A DNA stretch of 64,000 bases, taken from IMG/VR virus record IMGVR_UViG_3300035547_000249; one strand, given 5' to 3'. Shown one piece after another: positions 2,592 to 25,918 of this stretch. The translations under genes and the position numbers were made by a program. The notes beneath the pieces were generated by a model that saw only the letters and a program-made list of their open reading frames with translations, was not told the DNA's origin and searched no databases. Each line of letters starts with the position of its first letter. The first letter of the stretch is position 1. The DNA is from a virus. Taxonomy: Duplodnaviria > Heunggongvirae > Uroviricota > Caudoviricetes.

Positions 2592-2675
2592 ATAAGCTGT
2601 TTTCTCTAAAATGGGTATAGTAGTATAGTAATTAAATAGTATTAAATAGCATTAAATACAAGGAGTTTTGATAAA

Positions 2676-3035
2676 ATGAGTAGTATGTATTCAATTAGAG
2701 AAATAAAAGAAAGTGCTATGGCTTATGCTAATGAGGATATAGATATTAAGGATACTTATATATATAATAGAAAAGTTTCTGTTTATAATTTTAAGCTTTT
2801 TTTGGATTCTTATATAATGACTAAAAGAAAACATGGGGCACATATCTTTCTCAGTGAAATTGGTTTAATGGTTGGAAAGACTTCTAATGCCGGCGAATTG
2901 ATTGATCATGCCATTTCATTTATATCACAAAGGATTAGTTGTGGAATGCCTTCGGTTGGAAACTATGATGATATAATAAAATGGTATCATGCATCTAAAG
3001 ATAGTACTGACAATAATATTAATAGTATATGGTGA
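2676..3035 (+). CDS. NS[IV]W-tail family, subfamily A (119 aa), ends …NNINSIW
   Basis: RBS AAGGAG. Shares an N-terminal S(I/P)REI(K/M)ESA(M/I)(A/S)YA…D(T/A)(Y/F)IYN…YDIG(I/V)LL(S/G)Y core with neighbouring genes. C-terminal N-S-I-W followed by TGA. Confidence 0.6.
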   Translation: MSSMYSIREIKESAMAYANEDIDIKDTYIYNRKVSVYNFKLFLDSYIMTKRKHGAHIFLSEIGLMVGKTSNAGELIDHAISFISQRISCGMPSVGNYDDIIKWYHASKDSTDNNINSIW

Positions 3036-3039
3036 TAAT

Positions 3040-3411
3040 ATGAGTTATCCAATTAGAGAAATAATGGAAAGTGCTATATCTTATGCTCATAGAGATATTA
3101 GAATAAGAGACACTTTTATATATAATAATGCTGTTACTTTTGCTAATCTTAAGATCTTTATTGATAATTATATAAGGGTTAGGAATGAAATAAGTAATAA
3201 GAAAGCTGAATTTTATGATATTGGTATTTTGCTAGGATATATTAGTAATGGTGAATTTATGCTTGGATCTGTTGTTTCATACTTATTAAAGAAACGTTCG
3301 AATGGGCTTATAATAAACGGAGAGCCAGAAGATACAAAAAAGGGTTTCTGTTTCTTGCGCAAGCTTACTTCTTCTTCAAGAAACCGTACAAAATTAAAAA
3401 GTATATGGTGA
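3040..3411 (+). CDS. NS[IV]W-tail family, subfamily A paralogue, ends …KLKSIW
   Basis: Start chosen at ATG 3040 (MSYPIREIMESAISYAH…), which parallels the previous gene's N-terminus. The tracked ORF from 2989 is the same frame extended upstream. Confidence 0.6.
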   Translation: MSYPIREIMESAISYAHRDIRIRDTFIYNNAVTFANLKIFIDNYIRVRNEISNKKAEFYDIGILLGYISNGEFMLGSVVSYLLKKRSNGLIINGEPEDTKKGFCFLRKLTSSSRNRTKLKSIW

Positions 3412-3415
3412 TAAT

Positions 3416-3820
3416 ATGGGAACATATAGCGGTATTATAGAAAGCAGTTGGTCAGGCATAAGAGGTTTTAAGGATGGCAAAAGATATGGCAGCAGACTTG
3501 TCCATATCGGTGAGACTTTTATATATAAAAAAGAAGTAACCAGACATGAGTTTAGAAGTTTCATGAATGGTTATGTTAATGCAAGATATAGAAATGAAGA
3601 TAACCGAGCCTCGTTTAATGATATAGGTGTTCTATTATCATATACTACTAATGGAAAAGCCTTGATTGAAGACATCATAATTTATGCAAAAATTTCATTT
3701 TGGATGAATGAAAAAGTGAGTGGTAATTATGGTGATATCAGGGCTGGCTTTAATATGGCGTCTAATAATATTAAAGAATATAAGGCTGAAGAAATAAACA
3801 AATTTAATAGTATATGGTGA
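3416..3820 (+). CDS. NS[IV]W-tail family, subfamily A paralogue, ends …KFNSIW
   Basis: Conserved F(I/L)Y…F…Y…(F/Y)(N/Y)DIGVLLSYTTNG core and C-terminal NSIW. Confidence 0.6.
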   Translation: MGTYSGIIESSWSGIRGFKDGKRYGSRLVHIGETFIYKKEVTRHEFRSFMNGYVNARYRNEDNRASFNDIGVLLSYTTNGKALIEDIIIYAKISFWMNEKVSGNYGDIRAGFNMASNNIKEYKAEEINKFNSIW

Positions 3821-3824
3821 TATT

Positions 3825-4211
3825 ATGAATTGCATATGGACAACAGGTAAGGCAGCTAACAATGGAAGAAATTATGCTTTAGGCAAGATTAGCTTAAAAG
3901 AAACCTATTTATTTAATAATACTGTCTCCACTAATTGTACTAGAATATTTATCAATAACTATGTATTTTACAGCAGCCACAAGAAAAAAGTATCATATTA
4001 TGATATAGGAATTCTTATTTCATATACCAAGAACAATCTAGAATTTGTTAACAGTGTTTATGTATATTTGAATAATAAATATACTAGAACTCCTAATCCT
4101 GTTATTCGTGATATGTTGATTGGTAAACTTGATGACTTCATAGATGGGTATAACAACAGCATTCAACATGGTTGTGGTTATAATACACCAGAAAGGGTGA
4201 ATAGTATATGA
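3825..4211 (+). CDS. NS[IV]W-tail family, subfamily A variant ending …RVNSI-stop (terminal Trp lost)
   Basis: Same core (YYDIGILISYTKNN) but the 3' end reads AATAGTATATGATAA instead of AATAGTATATGGTGA. It could equally be annotated as a decaying copy. Confidence 0.45.
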   Translation: MNCIWTTGKAANNGRNYALGKISLKETYLFNNTVSTNCTRIFINNYVFYSSHKKKVSYYDIGILISYTKNNLEFVNSVYVYLNNKYTRTPNPVIRDMLIGKLDDFIDGYNNSIQHGCGYNTPERVNSI

Positions 4212-4430
4212 TAAATTCAATGACGTCAGAGAAATGGTTTTGGATAATGGACTATTGTAAAAGAAAACATATTTCGCCCGCGAGAGAATGGGCATGGAGA
4301 GAAGCTGAAGAAGAATATGACAAAATAGTTAGAAAGAAAACTAATAAAAATAACAATATGAAAAGTGTGTGGTAAATACAAATGTTTTTATTTAATAGAC
4401 AATAAACACCAAAGAAAGGAAAAGAAAAAA

Positions 4431-4712
4431 ATGATTAAATGGGGGTTATACACAATAATTGTAGTATATAACATACTAGATGTGTGGCAGACTCACTTAT
4501 TGTTGATGTTAGGAGCAAAAGAATTAAACCCAATATTCAATTTCTTGGGTCAATATTTTGGTATTATTCCGTCTATTATATATGTTAAGGTAATTTTGTT
4601 AGGGTTTTTAGGTGTATTGCTCTACAACTATAAGACAGTAAAATATATCAAAGAGATCGATAAAGATATAATGTCAATGAAAAAAGACTTATTTGAAATG
4701 GAAAAACTATAA
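4431..4712 (+). CDS. small integral membrane protein (about 3 TM segments)
   Basis: Hydrophobic segments; start taken at ATG 4431 after AAGGAAAAG. Confidence 0.5.
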   Translation: MIKWGLYTIIVVYNILDVWQTHLLLMLGAKELNPIFNFLGQYFGIIPSIIYVKVILLGFLGVLLYNYKTVKYIKEIDKDIMSMKKDLFEMEKL

Positions 4713-4730
4713 AAAGATTAGGAGGTATAT

Positions 4731-5198
4731 ATGGGCTTTATTATAATATTAATAATTATTAGTGCAGTTGCTGGAATTATAACTGGACTTTATGATGAGA
4801 AAAAAGAAGATCCGTTTTGGAATGGGTTTGTTTGTTCTGGAGGGGCATGTATGGCGGTAAGTGTATTTATATGTCTTTTTATATTCACTATATCATATTT
4901 TAATTATGTAGGATTGATGCAGTGGAAAACAGAGATCGAAAGTGTTCAAAATCAGGCATTAAGCGTATATATTTCATATGCAAACACTCCTCTGGGTGCA
5001 GAAGGTAAAATTGTATCAGATCTTAATGATAAGAAATATGAAAATTTCCAAAACAACCTGTTCTCAATGATAAAAGATTTAAAGAACACTATAACAAAGT
5101 ATAATGATAGACTTATCTCCAAACGTGTTTACAAGAATACCTGGTTTTGGGGGGCTTTAATTGTATTGCCTGAAGATCCTGGTATTTATGAACTTTAA
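4731..5198 (+). CDS. membrane protein with two N-terminal TM segments
   Basis: RBS AGGAGG; hydrophobic N-terminus. Confidence 0.5.
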   Translation: MGFIIILIIISAVAGIITGLYDEKKEDPFWNGFVCSGGACMAVSVFICLFIFTISYFNYVGLMQWKTEIESVQNQALSVYISYANTPLGAEGKIVSDLNDKKYENFQNNLFSMIKDLKNTITKYNDRLISKRVYKNTWFWGALIVLPEDPGIYEL

Positions 5199-5351
5199 TA
5201 ATTATAAGTAAAAAGAATATTATGATATTGTTTATACTTATAATTTTAAACATAGTTGCATTTATTGCAGCGGCTGATGTACTATTTGCTATTGCATATT
5301 TAGGTTGGTTTCAATTTATAGGAATAAAAAAAATTATAAAGGAGTATTACC

Positions 5352-5810
5352 ATGAAAAAGTTATCAAGTATTAACCACAGCTTAATTTTGTCTTTAATCG
5401 TTGCCCTCATCGCATTCAGTGTAATTTGTTCCACTGCATGGGCTGAGACAATTGGAGAATCAAAATCATCAGGTCTTTTGCTTAAGGATACAATAAGTGT
5501 AAATGCTTTCGATGATCCTGATTATTCAAGTATAGTATGTTATACAACAAATGTTGAAATTGGGGGACCCAACCTTGAAAATCCCTCTAATTCGTCAATT
5601 TCATGCAGGATGATTGATCATTTTAAGGGAACTCCAAAATCAAGGAATGATGTGTTCTCTAAGGCAAAGAGTCCGTTCTTTAAGAAGTTAACAGTGGATA
5701 GGTTTTATGATAAGAAACGCAATGTTCTGGTATACCTGTCCTATACAAAAAAGATGTCAGGGAGTAACGCGTCACATTCAGTGAGTGTGGTTCCTCTAGG
5801 GATAAAATAA
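5352..5810 (+). CDS. secreted protein with an N-terminal signal peptide (…TAWA/ET)
   Basis: RBS AAGGAG; N-terminal basic-hydrophobic segment with an AxA-like cleavage motif. Confidence 0.5.
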   Translation: MKKLSSINHSLILSLIVALIAFSVICSTAWAETIGESKSSGLLLKDTISVNAFDDPDYSSIVCYTTNVEIGGPNLENPSNSSISCRMIDHFKGTPKSRNDVFSKAKSPFFKKLTVDRFYDKKRNVLVYLSYTKKMSGSNASHSVSVVPLGIK

Positions 5811-5826
5811 TAGGAGAAAATAGACA

Positions 5827-6156
5827 ATGATACAGTTTTTATTTGCAACATTAGGTGCGTGGGTAATTTGGGTAATATATATCGTTATCAATACCCTGGC
5901 ATGGGCAATTTGTATGGAACACTGGGATGATATGATTTCTAACCTCGCAGATGAGGAAGAAATTGATGTCGGTGAATTTATTTTCGCGGCGGGCTCTTGG
6001 TTATTCTTTCCGATTATACTGGTAGTGATATTGTTTTGCAAAATATCGGTATTTATTATAAACCAAATCGTTGAGCCAGGTTTCAAAAAGTTCCTTAAGG
6101 CATTGCTGAAAATTATCCCAAAGTTTGAATTCAAAGTTAAATTTAAAGGAGATTAA
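5827..6156 (+). CDS. small membrane protein
   Basis: Three hydrophobic segments. Confidence 0.45.
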   Translation: MIQFLFATLGAWVIWVIYIVINTLAWAICMEHWDDMISNLADEEEIDVGEFIFAAGSWLFFPIILVVILFCKISVFIINQIVEPGFKKFLKALLKIIPKFEFKVKFKGD

Positions 6157-6322
6157 TACGGATTTTGAATCTGAGGTCACCAAAATTGTTGAAGAATACG
6201 GAGCACCTGAAGATATCACAAACGAAATAGTTGAATTTCTTATTAATAGTGGGAACATATATACTATTATAGAAATCGCAAAAGAAATGGATATCTAAGT
6301 AAAATTAAAAAGGAGTATTACC

Positions 6323-7039
6323 ATGAAGATAGGAATTACAGAGCGTGGAGATGCAGCATTGGATATGTCGTGGGTCAATAAGATGGATACTGTTGATGGG
6401 GCGATATTGATTACGAAAGCGGTGTCATCCAAAGAGTTTCAGAATGCTGTAAAAGAATTCAAAGACAAGGTTATTATCCATGCTACTATTACTGGTTATG
6501 GCGGTACTCCTATTGAACCAAATGTTCCAAGTCACGAAGAAACGATGGATAGTTTGTATGAACTAGAATCTTTTATGCCTGAGGGGCATGTTGTTCTTCG
6601 TATTGATCCTGTTATACCAAACGATGCTGGTAGAACTTGGATACCTTATTTGATAAACAAGTTGCCTACCTCAATCAAAAGAGTAAGATTTAGCATAATT
6701 GACAATTATAAACATCTTTCTGCGCGGGGGCTGGAATTGCCTTGGAAGACGTTCCATGCCCCACCTCAATTAATATCTAATGTTGTCAATGACTTTATGA
6801 AATTTTCACATACACATAGTATAGAATGCTGTGGTGAAGATCACCCATTAATACCAATGGTGTGGAAAAAAGGATGTATATCAGATTGGGATTTGATACT
6901 TCTTGGATTAGATTTCATGCAAGTTCCAAAAGTCACATCAAATCAACGTAAATCGTGCAGATGTTTGTCTGTAAAAACAGAATTATTAACCAGAAGAAAA
7001 CAATGCCGCCATGGCTGTTTATATTGTTATTGGAGATAA
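6323..7039 (+). CDS. Cys-rich putative Fe-S protein (DUF1848-like C-terminal CxC…CxxGCxYCY cluster)
   Basis: RBS AAGGAG; C-terminus …CRCLSV…CRHGCLYCYWR. The family assignment is from memory only. Confidence 0.35.
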   Translation: MKIGITERGDAALDMSWVNKMDTVDGAILITKAVSSKEFQNAVKEFKDKVIIHATITGYGGTPIEPNVPSHEETMDSLYELESFMPEGHVVLRIDPVIPNDAGRTWIPYLINKLPTSIKRVRFSIIDNYKHLSARGLELPWKTFHAPPQLISNVVNDFMKFSHTHSIECCGEDHPLIPMVWKKGCISDWDLILLGLDFMQVPKVTSNQRKSCRCLSVKTELLTRRKQCRHGCLYCYWR

Positions 7040-7045
7040 TAAACT

Positions 7046-7501
7046 ATGGACACTAAAACTAATAAAAAATACAGACCGTCAACCATTGTAAACAGTAAAG
7101 AGTATATATCACTAGACTTAGATACCTTAAGGCATGTTGATAACGGAGGTATGTTTGCTATAGGTTTAATTAATATAGAAGGAACTATTATATATCGAAA
7201 AGATATGGACAGCTATAAAGCTGCTTATTTTATTATTGGGTATATAAACACATCAGCACACTACTGTATCAATCTAAATGATGAAGAGGAACTTCCGGGT
7301 CTTTATGAGGTTGGAACTATTCTATCTTATACTGCAAACTGCGACGATATTATGACAGAAGTAGCAAATACCTTAATAAACTATTATAGCAATCCATCAA
7401 GGCATAATTTGTTAGGAACAATGATTGATTTTCATAAAGGTGTCATAGATGGTAGCAATAAACATTTTAACAAAGAAATCGAACTAAACAGTATATGGTA
7501 A
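7046..7501 (+). CDS. NS[IV]W-tail family, subfamily A paralogue, ends …LNSIW
   Basis: Core …YRKDMDSYKAAYFIIGYINT…VGTILSYTANCDD…; C-terminal NSIW then TAA. Confidence 0.6.
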   Translation: MDTKTNKKYRPSTIVNSKEYISLDLDTLRHVDNGGMFAIGLINIEGTIIYRKDMDSYKAAYFIIGYINTSAHYCINLNDEEELPGLYEVGTILSYTANCDDIMTEVANTLINYYSNPSRHNLLGTMIDFHKGVIDGSNKHFNKEIELNSIW

Positions 7502-7520
7502 TAATTGGGAGAATAGGAGT

Positions 7521-7904
7521 ATGGGTAATATTACTAAATCAAAAATGTCAATGGTTACTACAAGCATGCTTGGGGACCTTGGGGCATATTTATATTACAA
7601 CAAAAGATTTCCTGGTGATACATCCAACGATATACAAAGAAAATGTTTTTGTTTAGATGATTTTATTAAATTACTTAATGGTTACATATTATGTAAAAAC
7701 ACAGACAGTAATTATACCAATAGTATAAGTTATATTGAGATTGGAGAGGTATTATCACATATAAAAAACGGAGAAGACTTAATTAACAGACTAGAAGGTT
7801 ATTTTATGGTAATTGGTGAGGTGCTAGCTATAAAAGGTTCTATTGATGATATTACTGTAGGATTTAATAATAAAAAACAAGACAGTATAAACAGTATATG
7901 GTGA
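7521..7904 (+). CDS. NS[IV]W-tail family, subfamily A paralogue, ends …INSIW
   Basis: RBS GGAG; core …IEIGEVLSHIKNGED…; the stop TGA lies in the conserved 3' context. Confidence 0.6.
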   Translation: MGNITKSKMSMVTTSMLGDLGAYLYYNKRFPGDTSNDIQRKCFCLDDFIKLLNGYILCKNTDSNYTNSISYIEIGEVLSHIKNGEDLINRLEGYFMVIGEVLAIKGSIDDITVGFNNKKQDSINSIW

Positions 7905-7909
7905 ACAAT

Positions 7910-8299
7910 ATGAAAGAAAAAACCAACACAAAACGTAGTTTGTGCCGCCGCACAATCGGCAAAAGTTCTTTTGATGAAGGTATGGATCTGTATAAAAAGT
8001 ATTTATATAATCAACCAGTCAAAAGACAAGAAGAACCAATACCATTTACAGAACTTTTATCTATAATTAATGGATTTAGAATCGCCAAAATATCAAATCT
8101 AAGGATGTCTGGACATGATGGCCCAGAATTGAAAACTCTGTGCGCTATAAATTACGAAGAAATAAAATTTATGATAAACATATTTCCGAACAGAGATGCT
8201 TTGTTTATTGAATTGGTTAAAAAAAGTGTTATCGATGTTAATGATGAATTAGAAATAATAGATAAACAAACACAACCCCCAATTAACAGTGTATGGTGA
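7910..8299 (+). CDS. NS[IV]W-tail protein (divergent body), ends …INSVW
   Basis: Start taken at ATG 7910 in the recurrent TGA-ACAATATG junction; C-terminal N-S-V-W. Confidence 0.55.
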   Translation: MKEKTNTKRSLCRRTIGKSSFDEGMDLYKKYLYNQPVKRQEEPIPFTELLSIINGFRIAKISNLRMSGHDGPELKTLCAINYEEIKFMINIFPNRDALFIELVKKSVIDVNDELEIIDKQTQPPINSVW

Positions 8300-8425
8300 A
8301 TAATATGGATAATATAAAAATAACTGTTCTATTATTAGCAATACCTATTGTCGGTGGGCTATTGGTTATCAAATATGTAATACCAATAGTAAACAGACTA
8401 TTTTTGCTGTTGTAAGGAATGTAAT

Positions 8426-8791
8426 ATGAGTATTGCTTCATACGTATTAAAAGGATGGGAATATCACAAAGGAATAGCTTCTGTTGAAAACTTAAACATT
8501 ACCAACAAAGAATTGAATGACCTTGAAATAGAAAGCTTTCTAACAGGTTATTTTGACAACGAAGATATAATTCCTGTTAAAACCAACAAACTACGTGAAT
8601 CAGTAAGAAACCTTTCTCCTGTAGTAGATGTTGTTGGAAACAAATTAACATTTATTAGTATGACACTAAAATTCATTATAACGAAAATAGTAAAAGGAAA
8701 ACTAACTTACGCAGAATATATGGAGCTGTATGAAATAATGAACAAAAGATATGAGGAGATAAACGATGGGACATTCAACAGTATATGGTAG
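8426..8791 (+). CDS. NS[IV]W-tail protein, ends …FNSIW (TAG stop)
   Basis: C-terminal NSIW; the body is divergent. Confidence 0.55.
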   Translation: MSIASYVLKGWEYHKGIASVENLNITNKELNDLEIESFLTGYFDNEDIIPVKTNKLRESVRNLSPVVDVVGNKLTFISMTLKFIITKIVKGKLTYAEYMELYEIMNKRYEEINDGTFNSIW

Positions 8792-8947
8792 TAACATATT
8801 TGTCAATTTTTGTCATATATATGCTGTATTTCTAATTGTAGTAATGATGATCAGAAATATTGTTGCTATATATCATGTAGTATATGAAAAAGTTCCTGAT
8901 TCAGAAGCATGTGTTGGTATATATGGAAGGGACTGTATAGGAATAAT

Positions 8948-9433
8948 ATGGATAGCCGCAGCGATAATATCATGATGACTGACAATTTTGATGAAAACAA
9001 ACAAATTTTCTTTAAAAAGGGTAAAGAGTTTTATAGAAGATATACTTTCAATAAAACGCTACCTAAATTTGGAGATATATCAATAAAAGATTTTACACAG
9101 TTTACTAAAGGATTTGAAAAGGCTAAAGCTAATAGTTTAAGAATGACTGGTCACAGTGAAAAGAGTGTTAGAATATTATCTATTTTAAATTTTGAAGAAA
9201 AAGGCATCATTATAAACTCTTTTTCAAATAAATTGTATCTTATAAGGTCTATTTCTTCAGAAGAAGGTAATCCTATAGAATTAGCAAAATTCATCAGAAA
9301 AAGCTTGGCAAAATCCATTAAAAAAGCACAATTAAAAAGAAATTACTACAGAGATAATACTTTACCTTATGAGGCAACTGAAGAAGGCCCTTATGAGATA
9401 ACCGAAGAAGGAACAATAAAAAGTATATGGTAA
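8948..9433 (+). CDS. NS[IV]W-tail protein, ends …IKSIW
   Basis: Start taken at ATG 8948 in the AATAATATGGATA context shared with other array members. The tracked ORF from 8909 is the same frame. Confidence 0.5.
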   Translation: MDSRSDNIMMTDNFDENKQIFFKKGKEFYRRYTFNKTLPKFGDISIKDFTQFTKGFEKAKANSLRMTGHSEKSVRILSILNFEEKGIIINSFSNKLYLIRSISSEEGNPIELAKFIRKSLAKSIKKAQLKRNYYRDNTLPYEATEEGPYEITEEGTIKSIW

Positions 9434-11046: not shown

Positions 11047-11244
11047 AGTGTCGGTAGCTCAAACGGATAGAGCGCACGTAAAACGGAACGTGTAAGGAGT
11101 AAAATCCGGCAATGAAACAATATTTTGTATGGTTGCAGAAGCACCGAACCTGCCAGTAAGGGCTTAGTAGGGAAGCGCGTTTCCAAGAAATATTGTACTT
11201 GGGAGTAATGCCCCAAGCAATTGCTTTGTGGGTTCGAGTCCCAC
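11047..11244 (+). tRNA. Non-canonical tRNA-like gene. It has a perfect 7-bp acceptor stem (GTGTCGG/CCGACAC), a D arm (GCTC-AAACGGATA-GAGC) and a T arm (GTGGG-TTCGAGT-CCCAC), but carries about 140 nt inserted between the anticodon-arm region and the T arm
   Basis: Base pairing read directly. The region is locally GC-rich (about 50%) against a 30% background. Two internal hairpins have 8-nt loops and no U33-like anticodon loop. No 3'-CCA is encoded. The anticodon is indeterminate. Confidence 0.5.
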
Positions 11245-11267
11245 CCGACACACAAATAACATAAGGA

Positions 11268-11975
11268 ATGATTATGATAGTAATGATTGAAGTCACAAGA
11301 CAATGCAACCTTAAGTGTGATCATTGTTTAAGAGGTAAGCAAGAAAATATATCAATAAACCCTTATGATGTTGATACTCTATTCTCACAAATTAAATATA
11401 TTGAAGTACTGGTATTAACGGGAGGAGAGCCAGCACTGCACCCACATAGGATAAGAGCTATAACATCTATAGCTAGAAGGAAAGGGGTCACAATAAATAA
11501 CTTCTATATTTCTACGAATGGCACAATATCAACAAATGATTTTCTGAGTAGTATATTCGACTTGTGGATGTATTGTAGCGTTAATGATGAATCATGTCTA
11601 GAGATATCTAATGATGTGTTCCATGATATGAAAAAGATACATCAAAACATTGGCAGATTGTCTGTATTTTCATTTACCAGATTCAGGTATAGACCAAACG
11701 AATTTGAATTGTCAGATAAATTTCCGGGGTATGTTTATGATTATGAAGGTAAAAAGGATATCATAAGCGAAGGAAGAGGAAAAAAGTATAATGACTTCCA
11801 AATACCAGTACCAAACTTCAAGAGAACAATTGAAAGAGGGGAATCTTTTGATATATATTTAAACAGTAAGGGTAATATAGTTCTTGGGTGCGATTGGTCG
11901 TATGAAACACAGGATAAAAACTACTTATGTCATGTATCAGAGTTAAGGTCATACTTGGAAAGACAGAAAAAATGA
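11268..11975 (+). CDS. radical SAM enzyme (CNLKCDHC = CxxxCxxC)
   Basis: N-terminal …TRQCNLKCDHCLRG… and a glycine-rich …VLTGGEPALHP… SAM-binding motif. Confidence 0.7.
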   Translation: MIMIVMIEVTRQCNLKCDHCLRGKQENISINPYDVDTLFSQIKYIEVLVLTGGEPALHPHRIRAITSIARRKGVTINNFYISTNGTISTNDFLSSIFDLWMYCSVNDESCLEISNDVFHDMKKIHQNIGRLSVFSFTRFRYRPNEFELSDKFPGYVYDYEGKKDIISEGRGKKYNDFQIPVPNFKRTIERGESFDIYLNSKGNIVLGCDWSYETQDKNYLCHVSELRSYLERQKK

Positions 11976-12826
11976 AAACAAAATGCAATTGTTGTGACGG
12001 TATTTATAATTCTTTTGATGTACATTTTACCAGTGCTTGTGATAATAAATGTGCCCATTGTGTTGATCTTTGTTATAATGGTTTAGGAATTAATAAACCA
12101 GATATTAGTGCAATTATTAATACAATTATAGAAAATGAAGACGGTGTTGATGATGTTCTTTTTCTGGGTGGAGAACCTTGTTTATACTTAAATGAATTAA
12201 TATCGTGTATAATTCAAATAAAAAAGAAAACAAATCTTAAGGTGTATGTAACAACCTCTATACCAAAGACCTGTTATACTGATAGAAATAAATTCATCAG
12301 ATTAATAGAAGAGGTAGATGGAATCAATCTATCTGTACAACACTATCGAGAGGATATAGCAGATCAGATAAGAAGAACAGTTTCAAAGTATGACAGACAA
12401 AGTTTCTATTCAGGTCTTCCTCACAAAGAAAAGATCAGAATCAATATAAATATTGTTAAACCCTTTCTTTATACTAAAAGAGATATATCTAATTGTTTAA
12501 GGCATTATGATAAAATGGGGTTTAATTCAATAAAGCTATCAGAGATACAACACGGAAAGGATGTGTATGTATCATTCTGTGATATTTTTGGTATAAAAAT
12601 GGGGTCTGCTTATTCTAATGGGTGTCAATCTTATTTAGAGATGGATAAAATATTGCCCGGATTTGTGACACCGGTATTGCTTAAGAGATCTTGTTTTTTG
12701 TGTGAAGACAGTCTAAAAGCATCAATTTTCGATGGTATTAAAATGTTATCAAAATTAATTAATACACCAGATAACAAATATGGTGTAATATATGAAAATG
12801 GACAATTAATGAAAGGATGGATATAA
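11972..12826 (+). CDS. radical SAM enzyme (CDNKCAHC)
   Basis: Start taken at ATG 11972 overlapping the upstream stop (ATGA). Motifs …FTSACDNKCAHCVD… and …LFLGGEPCLY…. Confidence 0.65.
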   Translation: MKTKCNCCDGIYNSFDVHFTSACDNKCAHCVDLCYNGLGINKPDISAIINTIIENEDGVDDVLFLGGEPCLYLNELISCIIQIKKKTNLKVYVTTSIPKTCYTDRNKFIRLIEEVDGINLSVQHYREDIADQIRRTVSKYDRQSFYSGLPHKEKIRININIVKPFLYTKRDISNCLRHYDKMGFNSIKLSEIQHGKDVYVSFCDIFGIKMGSAYSNGCQSYLEMDKILPGFVTPVLLKRSCFLCEDSLKASIFDGIKMLSKLINTPDNKYGVIYENGQLMKGWI

Positions 12827-12869
12827 ATGTTTACTACACTTTTGAGAAAATTAAATAAGTTTTTGATTA

Positions 12870-13391
12870 TTGTATCAGGGCATTGCGGATCTGGGCATTG
12901 CTCATAAAAAAAAGAAACATCTCATGGATTTAAAAGATAAAATAGAAAAAATTATACAGATTGAAACGAATGTAATAAAGGAAGCCGCCAAACAAATAAT
13001 TAAGTATTGTGAAGAAGATGAAAGTATAAATGAATTTGTTGAAATAATTACTGACACCAAAGAATATGGTGAAAGTTTTTATGAATACAAACGAAGTTTC
13101 CTAAACATGGTTCTTTATAAACTTGGCTACCAGTTCCACATAAATGAATTCCATGATACTGATTCGCTTAGCAATCTAGCATCTTTTATAGGAAATTATT
13201 GTTATGATGACGCTTATTATGTTATATACGATGATGATTATTTCTATGGCGGAATAAAACATCCTGATAATGATGATGAAAAACAGCTTCAGGGGGTAGA
13301 ACATCTATTAAAATTAGCAGAAAAGAAAGCAAAAAGAGAAATAGAAAGATTTAACAAACTTAGAAATCTACTTAATAACGAGGAGAAGTAA
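12870..13391 (+). CDS. hypothetical acidic protein
   Basis: ORF only. The start is uncertain; the alternative ATG at 12924 is in frame. Confidence 0.4.
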   Translation: MYQGIADLGIAHKKKKHLMDLKDKIEKIIQIETNVIKEAAKQIIKYCEEDESINEFVEIITDTKEYGESFYEYKRSFLNMVLYKLGYQFHINEFHDTDSLSNLASFIGNYCYDDAYYVIYDDDYFYGGIKHPDNDDEKQLQGVEHLLKLAEKKAKREIERFNKLRNLLNNEEK

Positions 13392-13392
13392 A

Positions 13393-14355
13393 GTGAAAAT
13401 AAAAGACGTATTGTATCTTCCAAGTGGCAGGGTCTTTATCCAGGAAATGCATGATGGCTACATCATAGAATCAACGGAAATGAGAGATGTAGCTGTAGAT
13501 GGTAAGTTACATGCAGAAGTAAGAGAAACACAAAATCCTCAGAAAGTATGGAAACATCTTGTGCCATACGAGAAGAAATGGTTATTAACAGTTAGCACAC
13601 AAAAGGGCTGTGTACATAACTGTAAATTCTGTGATGTTGCCAACCTACCCTTTAAAGGAAATCTGGAACAACATGAAATTGAAAAACAGGTATTTAACCT
13701 GTTAACATCAAGCCCATATGTAACAAAAAGCAATAAAGTTAAAATTGGGTTCGCAAGAATGGGAGAGCCTGCATGGAATATTGAAAATGTTCTTGGTGCT
13801 ATGAAGAATCTTCCTTCAATATCTGATTTAATGGGAATGAGTTTTAAATGGCTGCCCTGCTTTAACAGTATATTGCCAAGAAAAGCCAATGTTTTGGAAG
13901 AAGTGATAGATTTTAAAGAAAGCGTTTATGATGGTGTGTTGCATTTTCAAATATCCTGTAATTCAACAAACGAAGAAAAGAGACAGGAGCTTTTTGGCGG
14001 GGCTGATGTTCTTTCGCTAGATGAAATAATTCCAATAGTAAATAAGCAAAAAATTACAAACAGAACTATTACCCTTAACTTTATTGTTATGAAAGGGGTA
14101 GAAGTTTCAGTAGAAAAACTCAGAAAAATGGGCTTAAACGGAGATAAGTTCACAGTAAAATTAATACCACTCAACAACACAAAAAACGCAGAAAACAATG
14201 AACTCGAAACATTCGCTAACTATTCAAATTACGAAGATTTAATTAAGTTAGGCGAAGAATTCAATAAAAACGGTGTTCCTGTAGTAATTGACGCAATAGC
14301 TAAATGCGAGGAGGCTGGATTATGCTGCGGACAACTTGCCCAAATATATCTGTAA
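13393..14355 (+). CDS. radical SAM enzyme with an RlmN/Cfr-like cluster motif (…VSTQKGCVHNCKFCDVANLPFKGNL…)
   Basis: GTG start after AGGAGAAG. The motif closely parallels the RlmN/Cfr …SSQVGCxxxCxFC…G(F/L)xRNL… segment. At 320 aa the protein is shorter than RlmN. Confidence 0.6.
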   Translation: MKIKDVLYLPSGRVFIQEMHDGYIIESTEMRDVAVDGKLHAEVRETQNPQKVWKHLVPYEKKWLLTVSTQKGCVHNCKFCDVANLPFKGNLEQHEIEKQVFNLLTSSPYVTKSNKVKIGFARMGEPAWNIENVLGAMKNLPSISDLMGMSFKWLPCFNSILPRKANVLEEVIDFKESVYDGVLHFQISCNSTNEEKRQELFGGADVLSLDEIIPIVNKQKITNRTITLNFIVMKGVEVSVEKLRKMGLNGDKFTVKLIPLNNTKNAENNELETFANYSNYEDLIKLGEEFNKNGVPVVIDAIAKCEEAGLCCGQLAQIYL

Positions 14356-14951
14356 TAACTAATTTCGGGTGTCGTGCTAATTGTTGGTACTGTATTTGGA
14401 AAGGTCACAAACTGCAGAATATAAATGACCCAACTGATTGGGTAAAACTAAGAAAATTCCTTCATGATAATAAGAGCAAGGGCAAGGTTTCAGTATCAGG
14501 AGGAGGCGATTGTTTGTATAGATTTGATGAGTATTATGAATGGTGGGTAAATTTCTTTAAAATTACTCGCGAATTGAATATGTTGGTTGATATACATTCA
14601 AGGGAAAAATTTCTAAATAGTTTATTCTGGAAAGGCAGCGTCAACAGAAGTGTTTTTTCAAGCGATAGGTTGGAGGATGATGTAGATTATTTGCGTTATT
14701 TAAGAAAGTTTACGCAAGTTAGAATAACTCATTTAGTCACATTTGATACTACATTTAACATGATAGACGACTATTTAAAATTTCAGAAAGAAATAGATTG
14801 TCAGTTCACTATTAAAGAATTAATAGGGTATGATGATGGAGGTATGTATAAGAAAATAAGGGAAAAGTATCCAGATATATATCATTTGGATGAAGGTGAC
14901 TATAATATATACTATATGCCAAACAACACAGTAACCGACAGTTTTCTTTAA
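14322..14951 (+). CDS. small radical SAM enzyme (…GCRANCWYC…; …VSVSGGGDCLY…)
   Basis: Start taken at ATG 14322 after GAGGAGG. CxxxCxxC plus a glycine-rich SAM motif. Similar in size to QueE or activase-type radical SAM proteins. Confidence 0.6.
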   Translation: MLRTTCPNISVITNFGCRANCWYCIWKGHKLQNINDPTDWVKLRKFLHDNKSKGKVSVSGGGDCLYRFDEYYEWWVNFFKITRELNMLVDIHSREKFLNSLFWKGSVNRSVFSSDRLEDDVDYLRYLRKFTQVRITHLVTFDTTFNMIDDYLKFQKEIDCQFTIKELIGYDDGGMYKKIREKYPDIYHLDEGDYNIYYMPNNTVTDSFL

Positions 14952-19802: not shown

Positions 19803-19988
19803 ATGGAATCAATTATTATAGAGGAAAAGAAAAATTTGGCAGAAGAATACATTAAGTATATTACTGAAAATGAAATAAAAGATAAAACATGGAACGACTT
19901 TTTTGAATATGCAAAGGTGCCAATGAAACATAGAACAGATTTTGCTATAGCATCTATACTTAAACAAGTAATGGAGAAAAATAAATGA
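19803..19988 (+). CDS. hypothetical protein
   Basis: ORF only. Confidence 0.4.
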   Translation: MESIIIEEKKNLAEEYIKYITENEIKDKTWNDFFEYAKVPMKHRTDFAIASILKQVMEKNK

Positions 19989-21139
19989 AATTAAGTGAAT
20001 TATATGCGTTGTTGCTGATGGTAATGTGTTTAGTAATTGCAGTGTATGCTATAATTTACTTAGTATATACTGCAATAATAGAAACCAAAGAAATAATCAA
20101 AAAAGATTGTGTGAGAGAAGATGAGAATGAGGGGGAGCTAATATCTATAATCAGAAATTTGGAAAAGACAAACGACATGAAAGTTGTTTACCTGTCTATT
20201 GTTGGTTCTAAGTTATTTGGAACTGATACTAAGGACTCGGATACTGATTACAGAGGAATTTTTATACCTTCGGTCAATTCATGTATAACAAAAACATGTG
20301 AAGACAATATAATATTTAAAACAAAGAATGACGACAGCAAAAACAACTCAGAAGATTTAGATGTACAATTATGGTCAATACAACATTTCCTTAGCTTGTT
20401 GTCTTTTGGAGATGTTAATGCTATAGATCTACTGTTTTCTTATACAAAAAAGGATGCTGTGGTTATAAATACTAAAGAATTCAATAAAATAATAGAAAAC
20501 AGAAATATTTTGTTTAATATGAAGGATGCTGCTAATTATCTTGGTTTCTCCAGACAACAAGCCATAAAATATGGTTTAAAAGGTAGAAGGTATGGCAAAA
20601 TAAAAGATGTACACAACTATGTTAAATCTCTCAATACGAAGAATGACTCCAAACTGAAAGATGTCATGTTTGATATAGTTAATAAATTCGGGGAATACCC
20701 ATTGTGTTTCATTAAAAAACAAAAAGACTATTTAAATAGAGAAAATACTTTTATAGAAATATGCGGAGTTATGCATCAGGATACAATATCTATAAAAGAA
20801 TTTCTTAATAGAATGGAACCAAAAAGAGATGGGTATGGAGAAAGAGCTAAATTAGCAGAAGTAAATGAGGGTGAAGACTATAAAGCTCTGTCACATTCTA
20901 TCAGATGTATTTATCAAGTAGAAATGTTATTTAAAACTGGAAAAATAATCTTTCCTTTACTTCAAGCAGATTATTTAAGAGACATAAAGCTTGGAAAAAT
21001 AAGTAAAGAAGATATTAACAAAGAATTCAACAGTAAAATAGACGTACTCACACACAAAGCGGCCAATATGGGCGATTATCCAGTTAATAAGGGTACAATC
21101 AATAATTTTATAATGATGTTTTACAAGGATATCACATAA
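19985..21139 (+). CDS. predicted nucleotidyltransferase (pol-beta superfamily; …YLSIVGSKLFGTDTKDSDTDYRGIFIPS…) with an N-terminal TM segment
   Basis: The GS-x-L-F/Y-G-x-D-x-D-S-D-x-D-x-R-G motif resembles the RNA-ligase-associated 'predicted nucleotidyltransferase' family; assignment from memory. Confidence 0.5.
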   Translation: MKLSELYALLLMVMCLVIAVYAIIYLVYTAIIETKEIIKKDCVREDENEGELISIIRNLEKTNDMKVVYLSIVGSKLFGTDTKDSDTDYRGIFIPSVNSCITKTCEDNIIFKTKNDDSKNNSEDLDVQLWSIQHFLSLLSFGDVNAIDLLFSYTKKDAVVINTKEFNKIIENRNILFNMKDAANYLGFSRQQAIKYGLKGRRYGKIKDVHNYVKSLNTKNDSKLKDVMFDIVNKFGEYPLCFIKKQKDYLNRENTFIEICGVMHQDTISIKEFLNRMEPKRDGYGERAKLAEVNEGEDYKALSHSIRCIYQVEMLFKTGKIIFPLLQADYLRDIKLGKISKEDINKEFNSKIDVLTHKAANMGDYPVNKGTINNFIMMFYKDIT

Positions 21140-21161
21140 CGTCGGTAGATATAGGTGATAA

Positions 21162-21482
21162 ATGCATGAATTAATTATGGGATTGATTTTTATATCAATA
21201 GCAATTATTGTGATATTGGTAGTTATATTAATAAAATACCTAAATATAGATTATATAGATTGTGCTAATCAAAGCAATAGTTTTATATATAAACACTCAA
21301 ACATAAATGATAATTATCAAGGTACATACATGTCCAAATCAAGCAGAAAAAGATCAAGAAGAAGAAGAAAAAAAGAGAAACTAGAAAAAATAAGCAAGGG
21401 TTTAGTTACAAATAATATGTTTAGAAAAATAGGCATATTAACGGAAATAGATGATAAGGAGAACACAGATGGAAAGAATTAA
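21162..21482 (+). CDS. membrane-anchored protein with a highly basic stretch (KSSRKRSRRRRKKEK)
   Basis: TM N-terminus; Arg/Lys run. Confidence 0.4.
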   Translation: MHELIMGLIFISIAIIVILVVILIKYLNIDYIDCANQSNSFIYKHSNINDNYQGTYMSKSSRKRSRRRRKKEKLEKISKGLVTNNMFRKIGILTEIDDKENTDGKN

Positions 21483-21723
21483 AATAAAAAATATCGCCGA
21501 AGTACTTTTTGAAAGTAATTATATAAGTGTGGATGAATACCATAAAATAAATGGGTTTATTAACAGAAATAGATTTAATGCTGTAATAGGGGCACTGTCT
21601 ATGATCGGAATTAAAATAAAACAGAGTAATTTTCCTATTTCAGGACCGGCCAAGCTAACAGCTGATTCCGAACTAATTGTTCCTGGAATAAACACTAAAA
21701 AATACATCAATAATATGAGATAG
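21469..21723 (+). CDS. hypothetical protein
   Basis: Start taken at ATG 21469 after AAGGAGAA. Confidence 0.4.
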   Translation: MERIKIKNIAEVLFESNYISVDEYHKINGFINRNRFNAVIGALSMIGIKIKQSNFPISGPAKLTADSELIVPGINTKKYINNMR

Positions 21724-21735
21724 GAGATAATTATT

Positions 21736-21915
21736 ATGAAAAGAAGAGCATTAACTCCAAACGTCAGTTCTAGTATACTTAAATCAGTAGAAAAAAGCAC
21801 TATGTGTAAATGTAACAGTTTAAACATAGAACTGTTTCCAATAAGCAGGTTTAGCAAACATTCTACCATTTGTCCTGTACATATAAGATATATGGAGAAA
21901 ATAAAGAAAGGTTAA
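21736..21915 (+). CDS. small Cys-containing protein (59 aa)
   Basis: Translated by eye: MKRRALTPNVSSSILKSVEKSTMCKCNSL…ICPVH…; RBS AGGAGA. Confidence 0.35.
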   Translation: MKRRALTPNVSSSILKSVEKSTMCKCNSLNIELFPISRFSKHSTICPVHIRYMEKIKKG

Positions 21916-21919
21916 TAGC

Positions 21920-22315
21920 ATGAATAAATACCTTAGAAGAATGGCAAAGACAGCTACAAAAATAAACGAAACAGAACAAGGCATAATAAAAGAAAATAAA
22001 GAAATAAAAAACGGTAGATTGCTTTACAATGATAGTTACGCTGAATCAGTTGTTATAAAAAGTCTGAACAAAGGTGTTTATGTAGTAATACATGGTAACA
22101 ACATTATTATTCCTGAAGATGATGAGCACCTGCAAAAGATTTGCAAAAACAGTAAAATAGCTACTATACACAACGTTAAATTCATACAAAAAAATAAAGT
22201 AGTGCATATAAAAAGTGTGATAGTCTCAGTGGACAACATGCTAATAGAATATGAATCTGATGATGTCATACATTTTTTCGAAGAACCAAAAACAAAATAT
22301 AACAGTATATGGTAA
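21920..22315 (+). CDS. NS[IV]W-tail protein, ends …KYNSIW
   Basis: C-terminal NSIW-TAA followed by GGAGAA and the next ATG. Confidence 0.55.
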   Translation: MNKYLRRMAKTATKINETEQGIIKENKEIKNGRLLYNDSYAESVVIKSLNKGVYVVIHGNNIIIPEDDEHLQKICKNSKIATIHNVKFIQKNKVVHIKSVIVSVDNMLIEYESDDVIHFFEEPKTKYNSIW

Positions 22316-22325
22316 GGAGAATTGT

Positions 22326-22544
22326 ATGTTGATAGCTAAAGCAGTAAAAAGTGATAGTGGTTTAAAGAAGAACAAAAAATACTATATTGGCGGAATGGTG
22401 CAAGGTAGTAGAAATCTTGTTTTAATGGATATGAAATTTAATATAGTTCCTGGAAATTTTTCAACAGAGCTGTTTGATTCTACACCTGAAGAAGTTTTAA
22501 AAGCCATAGAAGAAGGAAAGTATGAATTAAAACAAAAGGATTAA
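22326..22544 (+). CDS. hypothetical protein
   Basis: Start taken at ATG 22326 after AAGGAGAA. Confidence 0.45.
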   Translation: MLIAKAVKSDSGLKKNKKYYIGGMVQGSRNLVLMDMKFNIVPGNFSTELFDSTPEEVLKAIEEGKYELKQKD

Positions 22545-22548
22545 TATT

Positions 22549-23076
22549 ATGAATAAAGAGGAAGTTTATGTAACAAATGATTTTATTGTAGAAACTGGAA
22601 ACAAAAATGTGTATGGTTTATTTTTTAGGAGTCCGATACAAAAGGTAGTATATGAACACAATGATGTTTCAAACTATTCACCATCTTCTGCAACTAAGTG
22701 GTTGTTTTGGGCCAGAATATTAATAATTCCATACCTATTAAATTTTAAGTCTTTTAGTAATAAAAGAGATTTTATCCACAACAGAAGAAACGCAGCAGGT
22801 ATAATAGTAAATGAACTAGCTATGCCCATATATTTCAGAAGAAATATTAGATATATGGAGTGCTGCATAAATAATGAAAATATAAATATATCTAAAATAA
22901 CATCAAAAGGATACGGTAAATATAAAAGTGATGATATAGGTATGTGTCATAAAGAAATAACTAAATTACATTTCAGAAACGGAAAGACAAAAAAGATAGT
23001 AAGAAGAGAAACATATTATTTCACTTATACTCACATAATGAAAAAGGTGATAAACGACATTGATTACTATCAATAA
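22549..23076 (+). CDS. hypothetical protein
   Basis: ORF only. Confidence 0.45.
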   Translation: MNKEEVYVTNDFIVETGNKNVYGLFFRSPIQKVVYEHNDVSNYSPSSATKWLFWARILIIPYLLNFKSFSNKRDFIHNRRNAAGIIVNELAMPIYFRRNIRYMECCINNENINISKITSKGYGKYKSDDIGMCHKEITKLHFRNGKTKKIVRRETYYFTYTHIMKKVINDIDYYQ

Positions 23077-23181
23077 AAAAGAGATAAAAAAGTGGCTAAT
23101 TTCTGTAGTAGTTTTTGTATTATTGCAGTTAATTATGTTCTCTATAATTAAACCATAATAGTAAATGAGGAGATATATAAA

Positions 23182-24288
23182 GTGTACACACAAGAATTAA
23201 TAAAAGAAAAAGGCATAGAGGCTCTAAAGGATCTCGATATAATTATCAAAGAGTATAATGATAGGTTATGTCTAAAATACACACTAATGTCTCCTAAATT
23301 TAATCCTGTAGTTAAAGAATGTAGAGGATTAATATTATCCCTCCCTGATCTTAATATTATAAGCAGACCTTTCGATAAATTTTTTAATTATGGAGAAGAT
23401 CCGGACGGCCAGTCATTTTTTGATTGGGAAAATTCAATAGTGTTTGAGAAAAGAGATGGTACTCTTATACATGTCTATAATTATAAAAATAAATGGTTTG
23501 CAGGTACAACTGGCACAGCATACGCAGAAGGAAGTCCTCAGCTCACAATAGAAACTGGTAACAAAGAAACATTTTATAATTTGTTTTTAGAGGCATTGAA
23601 CCTTTCTGGTTGTGATGGTATAGACGATCTTATGGTAAATCAACCAAAAGAATTTACCTATCTTTTTGAATTAACAAGCCCAAAAAACAGAATTGTTACC
23701 AGATATGATAAGACAGAACTTAGATTATTAGCTATAAGGAATAACAGAACCGGTAAATACATTGATTATAACTTTATTGCTAAAAACGGATTCAGTGAAA
23801 TAACTGACTTTTGTCCGCTGGTAAAAATTTATGATCTAAAAAACCTTAAAGACATAGAAGAATTTATATCCTCTTTACAAAACACAGAAGAAGGTGTGGT
23901 TTGTTATGACTATATTAATCAAATGAGGATAAAAATTAAAAATCCAGAGTATGTAAAACTTCATTATTTAAGAGGTAATTCTTTAAATAGAAAGTCAGTC
24001 ATAAGCTTACTTGTTAGCGGAGAGATTGATGAGTACTTATCATATTTTCCTGAAGATATAGAAATATTGAATTCATATATCAACAGGTATAACAATATGG
24101 TTGATGAAATAATGAAAGTATATGAAAATTTAAAAGAAATAAAAAATCAAAAAGAGTTTGCAAGAGAAGCAATAAAATATAAGTTTCAAAGTGCATTATT
24201 TTCTCTCAGGAGAGGTAATACCTTGAAAGATTTTTTTAGCTACAACGAAATGAATTATGTAAGGAAACTTTTCTATGATCATTATTGA
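23182..24288 (+). CDS. rnlA: ATP-dependent RNA ligase, T4 RnlA (Rnl1)-like
   Basis: GTG start after GAGGAG. Motifs …KECRGLIL…RPFDKFFNYGEDP…EKRDGTLI… parallel T4 Rnl1 …ECRGIMFE…RPMEKFFNLNENP…TKEDGSLV…, including the KxDG adenylylation lysine. Confidence 0.7.
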   Translation: MYTQELIKEKGIEALKDLDIIIKEYNDRLCLKYTLMSPKFNPVVKECRGLILSLPDLNIISRPFDKFFNYGEDPDGQSFFDWENSIVFEKRDGTLIHVYNYKNKWFAGTTGTAYAEGSPQLTIETGNKETFYNLFLEALNLSGCDGIDDLMVNQPKEFTYLFELTSPKNRIVTRYDKTELRLLAIRNNRTGKYIDYNFIAKNGFSEITDFCPLVKIYDLKNLKDIEEFISSLQNTEEGVVCYDYINQMRIKIKNPEYVKLHYLRGNSLNRKSVISLLVSGEIDEYLSYFPEDIEILNSYINRYNNMVDEIMKVYENLKEIKNQKEFAREAIKYKFQSALFSLRRGNTLKDFFSYNEMNYVRKLFYDHY

Positions 24289-24562: not shown

Positions 24563-24572
24563 GAGAAAAGAT

Positions 24573-24806: not shown

Positions 24807-24810
24807 TAAT

Positions 24811-25053: not shown

Positions 25054-25072
25054 TTCATAGGAGACTTAAAAA

Positions 25073-25423: not shown

Positions 25424-25584
25424 TAGATCCAAGTACAGTTAATAATGTCTATGGTTTTGGAGAAAAAATAATAGTGGTGTTAATTATTATAGCAATATTG
25501 TTTTTAATGATAGAAGGTATGATACATATATGGTATACATGGGGAAATAAAAAACGTTTATTCATAAAAATTTAAGGGGGAAAA

Positions 25585-25917: not shown

Positions 25918-25918
25918 T

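Follow-up and report, generated by a model that had tools for sequence, protein, structure and literature searches.

A radical-SAM gene block of a Caudoviricetes phage appears to combine three separately inherited modules, among them a peptide cassette and a conserved enzyme pair

Organization of the radical-SAM gene block

The DNA stretch considered here, referred to as the window, comprises 64,000 nucleotides (nt) of a Caudoviricetes virus (IMG/VR record IMGVR_UViG_3300035547_000249). At positions 11268-14951 it carries a block of genes encoding four enzymes of the radical S-adenosylmethionine (SAM) superfamily, termed A to D. An earlier note, which was made from the sequence alone, had reported four open reading frames (ORFs) with a CxxxCxxC cluster motif and a glycine-rich motif. 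Each of these motifs was recovered, and hidden Markov model (HMM) searches identify all four proteins as radical-SAM enzymes. The genes are not strictly consecutive, as had been stated, since two further ORFs separate B from C. The block is composed as follows:

11268-11975, + strand: gene A, 235 amino acids (aa), motifs CNLKCDHC and TGGEPA; orphan phage-family radical-SAM enzyme
11972-12826, + strand: gene B, 284 aa, motifs CDNKCAHC and LGGEPC; putative peptide maturase
12827-12907, + strand: 26-aa precursor-like peptide, MFTTLLRKLNKFLIIVSGHCGSGHCS; ATG immediately after the TAA of B
12924-13391, + strand: gene X, 155 aa, acidic and Tyr-rich, without radical-SAM features
13393-14355, + strand: gene C, 320 aa, motifs GCVHNCKFC and ARMGEPA; GTG start behind GAGGAG
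14322-14951, + strand: gene D, 209 aa, motifs GCRANCWYC and SGGGDC; ATG start behind GAGGAGG, 34-nt overlap with C

The whole block is co-directional and densely packed, with gaps of at most 16 nt and the stop codon of X located 1 nt ahead of the GTG start of C, and probably represents one co-transcribed unit. Translation of B most likely begins with the Met at 11972, because homologues align from that residue and because the codon forms an ATGA overlap with the stop of A. For D, position 14322 is the most likely start since the GAGGAGG site precedes it.

Matches to the Pfam model PF04055 exceeded the gathering score for A (E 7.8e-9) and B (E 4.2e-8) and remained below it for C (E 5e-4) and D (E 6e-4). 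Cluster motif, glycine-rich motif and HMM match were found together in all four proteins. Furthermore, the structures predicted by AF2 for C and D resemble those of radical-SAM enzymes, and the family profiles of A and of B match radical-SAM structures in the PDB. Protein X yielded no match to Pfam, NCBIfam, PHROG or PADLOC families, and its homologues were found only in two loci (L003 and L004) of the same phage lineage as the window. Gene X is accordingly regarded as lineage-specific, and whether it belongs to either of the neighbouring modules is uncertain.

Enzyme B and the 26-aa peptide represent a putative peptide-maturation cassette

Homologues of B were found in 72 IMG/VR loci, of which 68 were used for neighbourhood counts; the family comprises 294 representatives at the 50% identity level (E ≤ 1e-3). 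In nearly all viral B loci a short ORF follows the stop codon of B. Applying a filter for Cys-rich ORFs starting within -70 to +150 nt of this stop, such an ORF was detected in 55 of the 68 loci, as compared to 1.1% of all ORFs of at least 20 aa in the same loci. The peptide gene is conserved directly after B. Most of the 55 Cys-rich ORFs are of an HC...HC type (39), followed by a Cys/Gly/Ser-rich type (15) and a single CH type. The peptide type tracks the B subfamily: HC peptides accompany the closer relatives of B, and Cys/Gly/Ser-rich peptides accompany a subfamily at 40-46% identity.

A common leader, M-[YFW]-T-[KR]-h-L-[RK]-K-h-V, is found in the 27 distinct peptides with two HC units; the first HC comes after 17-21 residues, and the spacer is rich in Gly and 3-14 residues long. 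Of the 54 HC units, 52 are preceded by Gly, and 25 of the 27 peptides end exactly one residue after the last HC. The window peptide fits this leader and the core pattern G-H-C...G-H-C-x exactly, and some longer forms contain four GHC units. A search of six precursor peptides against NCBIfam returned no family match. An adjacent short gene with a conserved leader and a variable core, by which radical-SAM maturases of peptides that are synthesized by the ribosome and modified post-translationally (RiPPs) can be recognized, is thus present beside B. Judged from sequence comparison, B and the 26-aa ORF are likely to form a RiPP-like cassette, which is the best-supported part of this analysis.

Within the B family, the residues N6-x-C8-D9, C23/C27/C30, GGEP, C218 and C241 are invariant. 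No SPASM/twitch domain was detected by the Pfam model PF13186; C8, C218 and C241 are nonetheless invariant in 39 sequences, which suggests that they may serve as ligands of a second, three-Cys Fe-S cluster. The family profile of B matches viperin-like enzymes best among PDB sequences (E 1e-16), followed by SuiB and YydG, and these matches cover the common core only. Regarding the mechanism, it is proposed that B would recognize the conserved N-terminal leader of the 26-aa peptide and hold the second Fe-S cluster on C8/C218/C241. Its 5'-deoxyadenosyl radical would then modify the Gly-flanked Cys, or possibly the His, of the G-H-C...G-H-C-x tail, with a thioether or other C-S cross-link as the likeliest modification. 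Cys is the presumed target because the His is dispensable in one subfamily and the Gly-flanked Cys is universal.

Among 50,697 GenBank phage records, only Lak megaphages, represented by metagenome-assembled genomes (MAGs), carry B. In Prevotella phage Lak-B1 (L171, 10282-11650) a B homologue of 34-35% identity is followed by a 166-aa ORF ending ...SSGGCGNTYGSPYHHWSGGC, i.e., with the Gly-Cys tail ...SSGGCGN...WSGGC. The substrate can therefore, as this arrangement indicates, also be a longer protein with a Gly-Cys tail. In approximately 15 loci of the B subfamily at 40-46% identity (L121-L130), B is immediately preceded by genes for a NadR-like nicotinamide mononucleotide (NMN) adenylyltransferase/kinase of 362 aa and for a 219-aa PnuC-like membrane protein, and genes for the Cys/Gly/Ser-rich peptide and baseplate proteins lie downstream of it.

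With known radical-SAM RiPP maturases (SCIFF/ranthipeptide and sactipeptide enzymes such as CteB, PapB and CcpM, as well as YydG/EpeE and SuiB), the cassette shares a gene for a short leader and a Cys/Gly-rich core directly after the enzyme gene. Moreover, the additional conserved Cys residues of B are consistent with an auxiliary cluster, and its profile matches reach SuiB, YydG, CteB and SkfB. In contrast to these enzymes, B comprises just 284 aa, contains no SPASM/twitch domain according to Pfam and no evident RiPP recognition element, and its three extra Cys are divided between the N- and the C-terminus. The G-H-C...G-H-C-x core matches no NCBIfam family, and the cassette resides on phage genomes, those of Lak megaphages included. 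The suggestion of the earlier note that A and B resemble peptide maturases agrees with the profile searches, in which YydG/EpeE and SuiB, and also viperin, were nearest. Its proposal of RiPP-like peptide modification fits B and the 26-aa ORF; extension of this pathway to all four genes is at odds with their separate distributions described below.

Enzyme C shares the RlmN/Cfr fold and lacks the canonical resolving cysteine

Protein C had been assigned to the RlmN/Cfr family in the earlier note. The signature S-x-Q-x-G-C-x3-C-x-F-C and the fold were recovered, and this part of the assignment holds; the Cys at the position of RlmN C118 and the N-terminal domain were not found. Searches against TIGR00048 (RlmN) gave an E value of 2.6e-21 and 76 bits versus a cut-off of 290, with the alignment beginning at model position 64. 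Matches to Cfr models reached E ~1e-14 and 53-54 bits versus cut-offs of 468-550, and the match to phrog_24834 had an E value of 2.5e-37. C thus stays below the curated scores of both families. Moreover, since the TIGR00048 alignment begins only at model position 64, C is devoid of the N-terminal domain of RlmN (~60 residues). The predicted structure of C (pLDDT 90) has its top Foldseek matches in 6fz6, 3rfa, 5hr7 and 9p0p, including Cfr (E ~1e-13).

In RlmN, C355 carries the methyl group and C118 resolves the methylene adduct between enzyme and substrate. A phmmer search aligned ...VSTQKGCVHNCKFC of C with ...VSSQVGCALECKFC. The methyl-carrier Cys is present in C: C312 (in CCGQL) aligns with C355 of RlmN and with AACGQL of 6fz6, and is invariant in 17 of 17 diverse homologues. 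The resolving Cys is absent: where wild-type RlmN (3rf9) has C118, and Cfr and 6fz6 their equivalent Cys, the alignments place T66 of C, seven residues ahead of the first cluster Cys. Both T66 and C312 are invariant in 37 members of the C family and in the related protein of Bacteroides phage Versailles. Across the 17 diverse homologues, only the three cluster ligands and C312 are universally conserved Cys residues; C156 and C311 are conserved solely in the clade linked to D.

C consequently shares with RlmN/Cfr (PDB 3RFA, 5HR7, 6FZ6, 9P0P) the fold, the cluster signature, an MGEP motif and the C-terminal C-G-Q loop. It differs from them by the missing N-terminal domain, the invariant Thr in place of C118, the obligate pairing with D and its location on phage genomes. 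Based on the conserved carrier Cys and the fold, we infer that C behaves like a class A methyl synthase in the first half-reaction and would deliver a one-carbon unit to an sp2 ring carbon. Product release must proceed via another residue (C156 or C311) or a partner, or must lead to a different outcome. Since C possesses neither the RNA-binding N-terminal domain nor the canonical resolving Cys, it is expected to depart from RlmN in substrate or in release chemistry.

The C family comprises at least 120 clusters, the best 120 of which show 64-100% identity. Single C-like genes of lower identity (24-33%) are carried by Bacteroides phage Versailles, Moorella phage MTATph1 and several further phages on record, among them a crAss-like Bacteroides phage as well as phages of Pectobacterium and Yersinia. 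In Moorella phage MTATph1 (L002, 5827-6789) the C-like gene is split into a 275-aa ORF and a subsequent annotated 40-aa ORF with AACGQL, which reflects either a frameshift or a truly split gene. Another C homologue (L031, 8723-10786) harbours a LAGLIDADG intein exactly before the third cluster Cys (NCQF|C...HN|CDV). Inteins favour such sites in functionally constrained proteins.

C and D constitute a phage-borne enzyme pair

In order to determine the neighbourhood of C, ORFs from 68 IMG/VR loci with a C homologue were searched with A, B, X, C and D. D adjoins C in 63 of the 68 viral loci, and both gene orders occur. In some loci D is located directly downstream and overlaps C as in the window. 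In a clade at 40-42% identity (34 loci), D lies upstream of C and a 142-aa gene is inserted between them. Clustering of the neighbouring ORFs revealed no third family shared across clades, only this clade-specific HAD-like gene. For D, the family contains 221 clusters (62-72% identity), whose contigs equal those of the C family in length, and C and D are both conserved at 60-80% identity. C and D form an obligate two-enzyme module, as deduced from their well-supported linkage.

A pattern scan of 185,579 prokaryotic species, represented by one genome each, returned nine loci, all labelled as MAGs except for the gut isolate Bacterium 1xD42-87. Eight of them contain clear C homologues, six of which are adjoined by D. 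Because so few loci, mostly from MAGs, were obtained from this collection, the C-D pair is considered essentially phage-borne. D was absent from the cultured phages in the 50,697-record collection.

D represents a minimal radical-SAM core with two further conserved Cys residues, C110 and C160. Its family profile matched none of the PDB sequences, and matches in BFVD were of a generic radical-SAM kind only. In four diverged sequences (P0160, P0177, L025 and L078) D is fused to an HxGH nucleotidyltransferase with GRFQPxHKGH and ISSTxIR-like motifs, for which NMN adenylyltransferases (NMNATs) are the best family matches. The 142-aa gene between D and C encodes the HAD motifs FDFDNT, LILST and MLDD (DxDxT, S/T and DD as judged by eye) and showed sub-threshold matches to TIGR01681 and TIGR01662 (HAD-IIIC and HAD-IIIA); no match was found in Pfam or the PDB. 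NMNAT-like and HAD enzymes act on phosphate esters of small molecules. Since this applies to both accessory enzymes, a nucleotide-like small molecule is weakly favoured over rRNA or tRNA as the substrate of C-D, with a nucleic-acid target being nearly as likely. As a speculative specification, C and D might, in a phage-specific pathway, build a hitherto unknown C-alkylated purine nucleotide or dinucleotide resembling nicotinamide adenine dinucleotide, assisted in some lineages by the NMNAT-like adenylyltransferase or the HAD phosphatase. If true, such a C-alkylated nucleotide could serve as a counter-defence metabolite or as the precursor of a modified nucleic acid. Furthermore, a radical-SAM gene of ~295 aa (CDGGCAWC) with weak MoaA- and NrdG-like matches only was observed ~2 kb downstream of the D-HAD-C genes in L043 (11871-12770) and 11 related loci.

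Enzyme A is an orphan single-cluster enzyme

The A family is small (54 clusters). Its members contain one cluster only, no extra conserved Cys cluster and the conserved C-terminal motif YLNxxGxIxxGCDWSYETQ. The viral scan for A employed a generic pattern and returned just four real relatives. The homologues in L007 and L009 stand alone among small accessory genes, and no conserved partner gene or peptide was found beside A homologues. Among PDB sequences, the family profile matches the epimerase YydG/EpeE best (E 1.4e-11), followed by viperin. A is regarded as an orphan single-cluster enzyme for which a role on the GHC peptide of this phage is possible, albeit without support from co-occurrence.

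Distribution of the families across viral loci points to three modules

Within the 68 viral C loci, A and B were not found within 10 kb of C, and the ORF search did not recover X. Conversely, the 68 viral B loci contained neither A nor D within 6 kb of B, and a C-like gene was present in one of them (L146). As the A, B and C-D families have separate distributions, they are unlikely to belong to one pathway. Based on these results, it is proposed that three phage radical-SAM modules, each inherited independently, have accumulated in the block in this particular lineage, namely A alone, B with its peptide, and C with D; a probability of roughly 0.6 is assigned to this interpretation.

In the exceptional locus L146 (2210-4144), one overlapping operon unites an RlmN-like gene of the Versailles type (340 aa), a B homologue of 281 aa and the GHC peptide MKTKIAKIINKIRKAISHCSGGHCN. 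Together, the window and L146 represent two independent juxtapositions of an RlmN-like gene with a B cassette. An RlaP-like gene is located ~1 kb downstream of the L146 operon.

Several observations weigh against the proposed three-module scheme or parts of it. The L146 operon hints that an RlmN-like enzyme may act on the peptide in some cases, and the tight packing of the block means that the genes of the window could act together. No peptide was found in 13 of the 68 B loci under the filter used. Regarding C, all solved relatives are RNA methylases, and C156 or C311 could, judging from their conservation, replace the resolving Cys and allow ordinary methyl transfer to RNA. Moreover, D does not accompany the C-like proteins of Versailles and Moorella type. 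Fusions of D to the NMNAT-like domain are few, and the 34 HAD-containing loci belong to one clade and count approximately as one observation, in which the HAD assignment relies on motifs and sub-threshold matches.

Genomic context of the block

The window represents an AT-rich (~32% G+C), single-strand-coded phage region. No near-identical DNA or close relative was detected among the 50,697 GenBank phage records; the same genes are present on metagenomic contigs of up to 118 kb. The following further features were considered:

~11048-11253, + strand: tRNA-like element recognized by eye, with acceptor GTGTCGG/CCGACAC, D arm, anticodon-like stem with 8-nt loop, and canonical T arm GTGGGTTCGAGTCCCAC
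2646-9433 and 21905-25053, + strand: thirteen NS[IV]W-type ORFs of ~55-175 aa ending in [NK]S[IV]W
6323-7039, + strand: DUF1848 protein (PF08902, E 1.7e-23) with C-terminal CRHGCLYCYW; PADLOC RTasDUF1848, E 1e-14
19985-32164, 37669-38421 and 59947-61347, + strand: RNA-repair/surveillance set with RlaP, T4-type RNA ligase 1, HD + AAA_33 (P-loop) kinase-like protein, Band 7 protein, Ro60 (TROVE + vWA), PolyA_pol-head protein and a full CCA-adding enzyme
35620-39425, 48805-57054 and 62509-63261, + strand: amidoligase set with three phiEco32-type COOH-NH2 ligases, two or three RimK/ATP-grasp proteins and four glutamine amidotransferases

The tRNA-like element contains an insert of ~145 nt after the anticodon-like arm, shows a folding z-score of -3 and ends ~15 nt before A. 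Ends resembling those of a tRNA can be seen by eye, which agrees with the tRNA-like gene previously placed upstream of the block; ARAGORN made no call, and the Rfam tRNA model gave just 14 bits (E = 6). Across the window, neither Rfam nor ARAGORN reported anything at threshold. The element was seen only in the same phage lineage. For the NS[IV]W tag, a role as lineage-specific C-terminal signal for sorting, processing or amidoligase tagging may be considered, as genes for ATP-grasp proteins and COOH-NH2 ligases are numerous in the window. The amidoligase complement is unusually large, and its four glutamine amidotransferases include two of the Peptidase_C26 type and two of the GATase_6/7 type.

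RTasDUF1848 proteins are partners of defence-associated reverse transcriptases, and the DUF1848 protein may represent a fifth Fe-S enzyme of the region. With Ro60 encoded, the phage may also possess a Y-RNA-like partner. The window also encodes a fused RNA-polymerase-like protein, a RuvB-like ATPase and a sigma-like protein. In other loci, no association of the RNA-repair, Ro60, amidoligase or DUF1848 genes with C-D or B was observed.

Evaluation of alternative explanations

A composite RiPP cluster would have A, B, C and D, perhaps with X, all acting on the GHC peptide of this phage, with A in the part of an epimerase-like enzyme, B cross-linking the peptide and C, as a class A enzyme, methylating a His imidazole carbon, which is chemically akin to adenine C8. 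This arrangement would account for the ATGA overlap between A and B, the peptide ATG abutting the stop of B, the short distance between X and C, the overlap between C and D, the operon of L146 in which a C-like gene, B and GHC peptide are united, and the proximity of the A profile to the peptide epimerase YydG/EpeE. However, tight packing is the norm across the window. Moreover, a GHC-type peptide was not found within 10 kb of C-D in other C loci, at least 66 of the 68 B loci are devoid of a C-like gene and all 68 of A and D, and A homologues occur without a neighbouring peptide, rendering a single composite cluster improbable. Still lower is the probability that A, B and D are activases of glycyl-radical enzymes (NrdG/PflA type) or viperin-type nucleotide dehydratases, even though some family members are labelled 'organic radical activating enzyme' by the Joint Genome Institute, weak matches to NrdG2 and prokaryotic viperin models were obtained, and viperin-like enzymes are the best PDB matches of the B profile. 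Scores for the activase model TIGR02495 amounted to 13-26 bits (A 21.6, B 25.6, D 12.7) versus a cut-off of 131, so that the NrdG/PflA assignment named in the earlier note as a possible outcome does not apply, and no NrdD/PFL-type glycyl-radical enzyme was found among the large window ORFs scanned. Likewise, A and B reached 34.8 and 31.2 bits with the viperin model NF038283 (cut-off 180), and TIGR04278 gave 21.7 bits versus 450. The PADLOC pVip matches of A and B are partial. Matches to viperin and prokaryotic viperins cover the common core only and stop short of the region C-terminal to it; three extra invariant Cys and a conserved peptide partner, as found for B, are not viperin features. 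A and B were accordingly not placed among the viperins, nor A, B and D among the NrdG/PflA enzymes. The NS[IV]W paralogues or the upstream tRNA-like RNA, both suggested previously as partners of the enzymes, have hardly any chance of being their substrates. They are close by in the window, with thirteen tagged ORFs and the tRNA-like element next to A. However, the tag is absent from the other fetched A, B or C-D loci save L003 and L004 of the same lineage, and the tRNA-like element is confined to this lineage and recognized by neither ARAGORN nor Rfam. Ties of the tRNA-like RNA or the amidoligase genes to the enzymes, as envisaged before, found no counterpart in other genomes.

With respect to the target of C-D, RlmN/Cfr-like modification of RNA or DNA has to be weighed, in which C would methylate C2 or C8 of a specific adenosine, either in rRNA or tRNA of the host or in nucleic acid of the phage, possibly blunting a host toxin, anticodon nuclease or restriction, with D assisting or adding a second mark. 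RlmN and Cfr are the only significant relatives of C in sequence and structure, the methyl-carrier Cys and the CGQ motif are invariant, and C156 or C311 could represent the resolving Cys in the D-linked clade. Furthermore, the phage carries RlaP, Rnl1, the HD-kinase, Ro60 and the CCA-adding enzyme. These points are opposed by the missing N-terminal domain, as indicated by the TIGR00048 alignment, by the invariant Thr at the position of C118, and by the fusions of D to an NMNAT-like domain and the neighbouring HAD-like gene, which speak for a phosphorylated small molecule. RNA-repair genes were found near C-D in other phages at just 0-4 of 68 loci; as they are not enriched there, the contextual case for a tRNA target falls, with RNA still being a possible substrate. 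Overall, nucleic-acid modification by C-D is judged possible but doubtful, with somewhat better prospects than the specific C-alkylated nucleotide outlined above. Accumulation of three separately inherited modules is retained as the preferred interpretation of the block.

Precedent and significance

Radical-SAM gene clusters had been regarded as unusual in a phage; precedent nevertheless exists in the Campylobacter phages CP220 and CPt10, which encode 11-12 radical-SAM genes (11 in CP220), five of them in one module (PMC2853527). Like the block described here, these modules comprise several clustered radical-SAM genes in phages of low-oxygen hosts, and their function is unexplained. In contrast, the families differ, and the genes of the present cluster can be sorted into a cassette with a peptide, a conserved pair and an orphan. 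A full-text literature search of limited coverage retrieved no description of the B-peptide cassette or the C-D module, and radical SAM is not mentioned in a comparative jumbo-phage paper (PMC7824862). Within this limited literature coverage, both modules appear to be undescribed.

The compact cassette of a radical-SAM enzyme and a G-H-C-repeat peptide is spread over large uncultured phages, as documented by the 72 IMG/VR loci with B, and curated models recognized neither its enzyme family nor its peptide family. Modified peptides encoded by phages have received little study, and possible targets of the GHC peptide are the host, competitors or metals. C represents a natural variant of a well-studied enzyme without the Cys needed for product release in RlmN and Cfr. 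Its substrate would extend class A radical-SAM chemistry and might reveal a new modification of phage nucleic acids or nucleotides.

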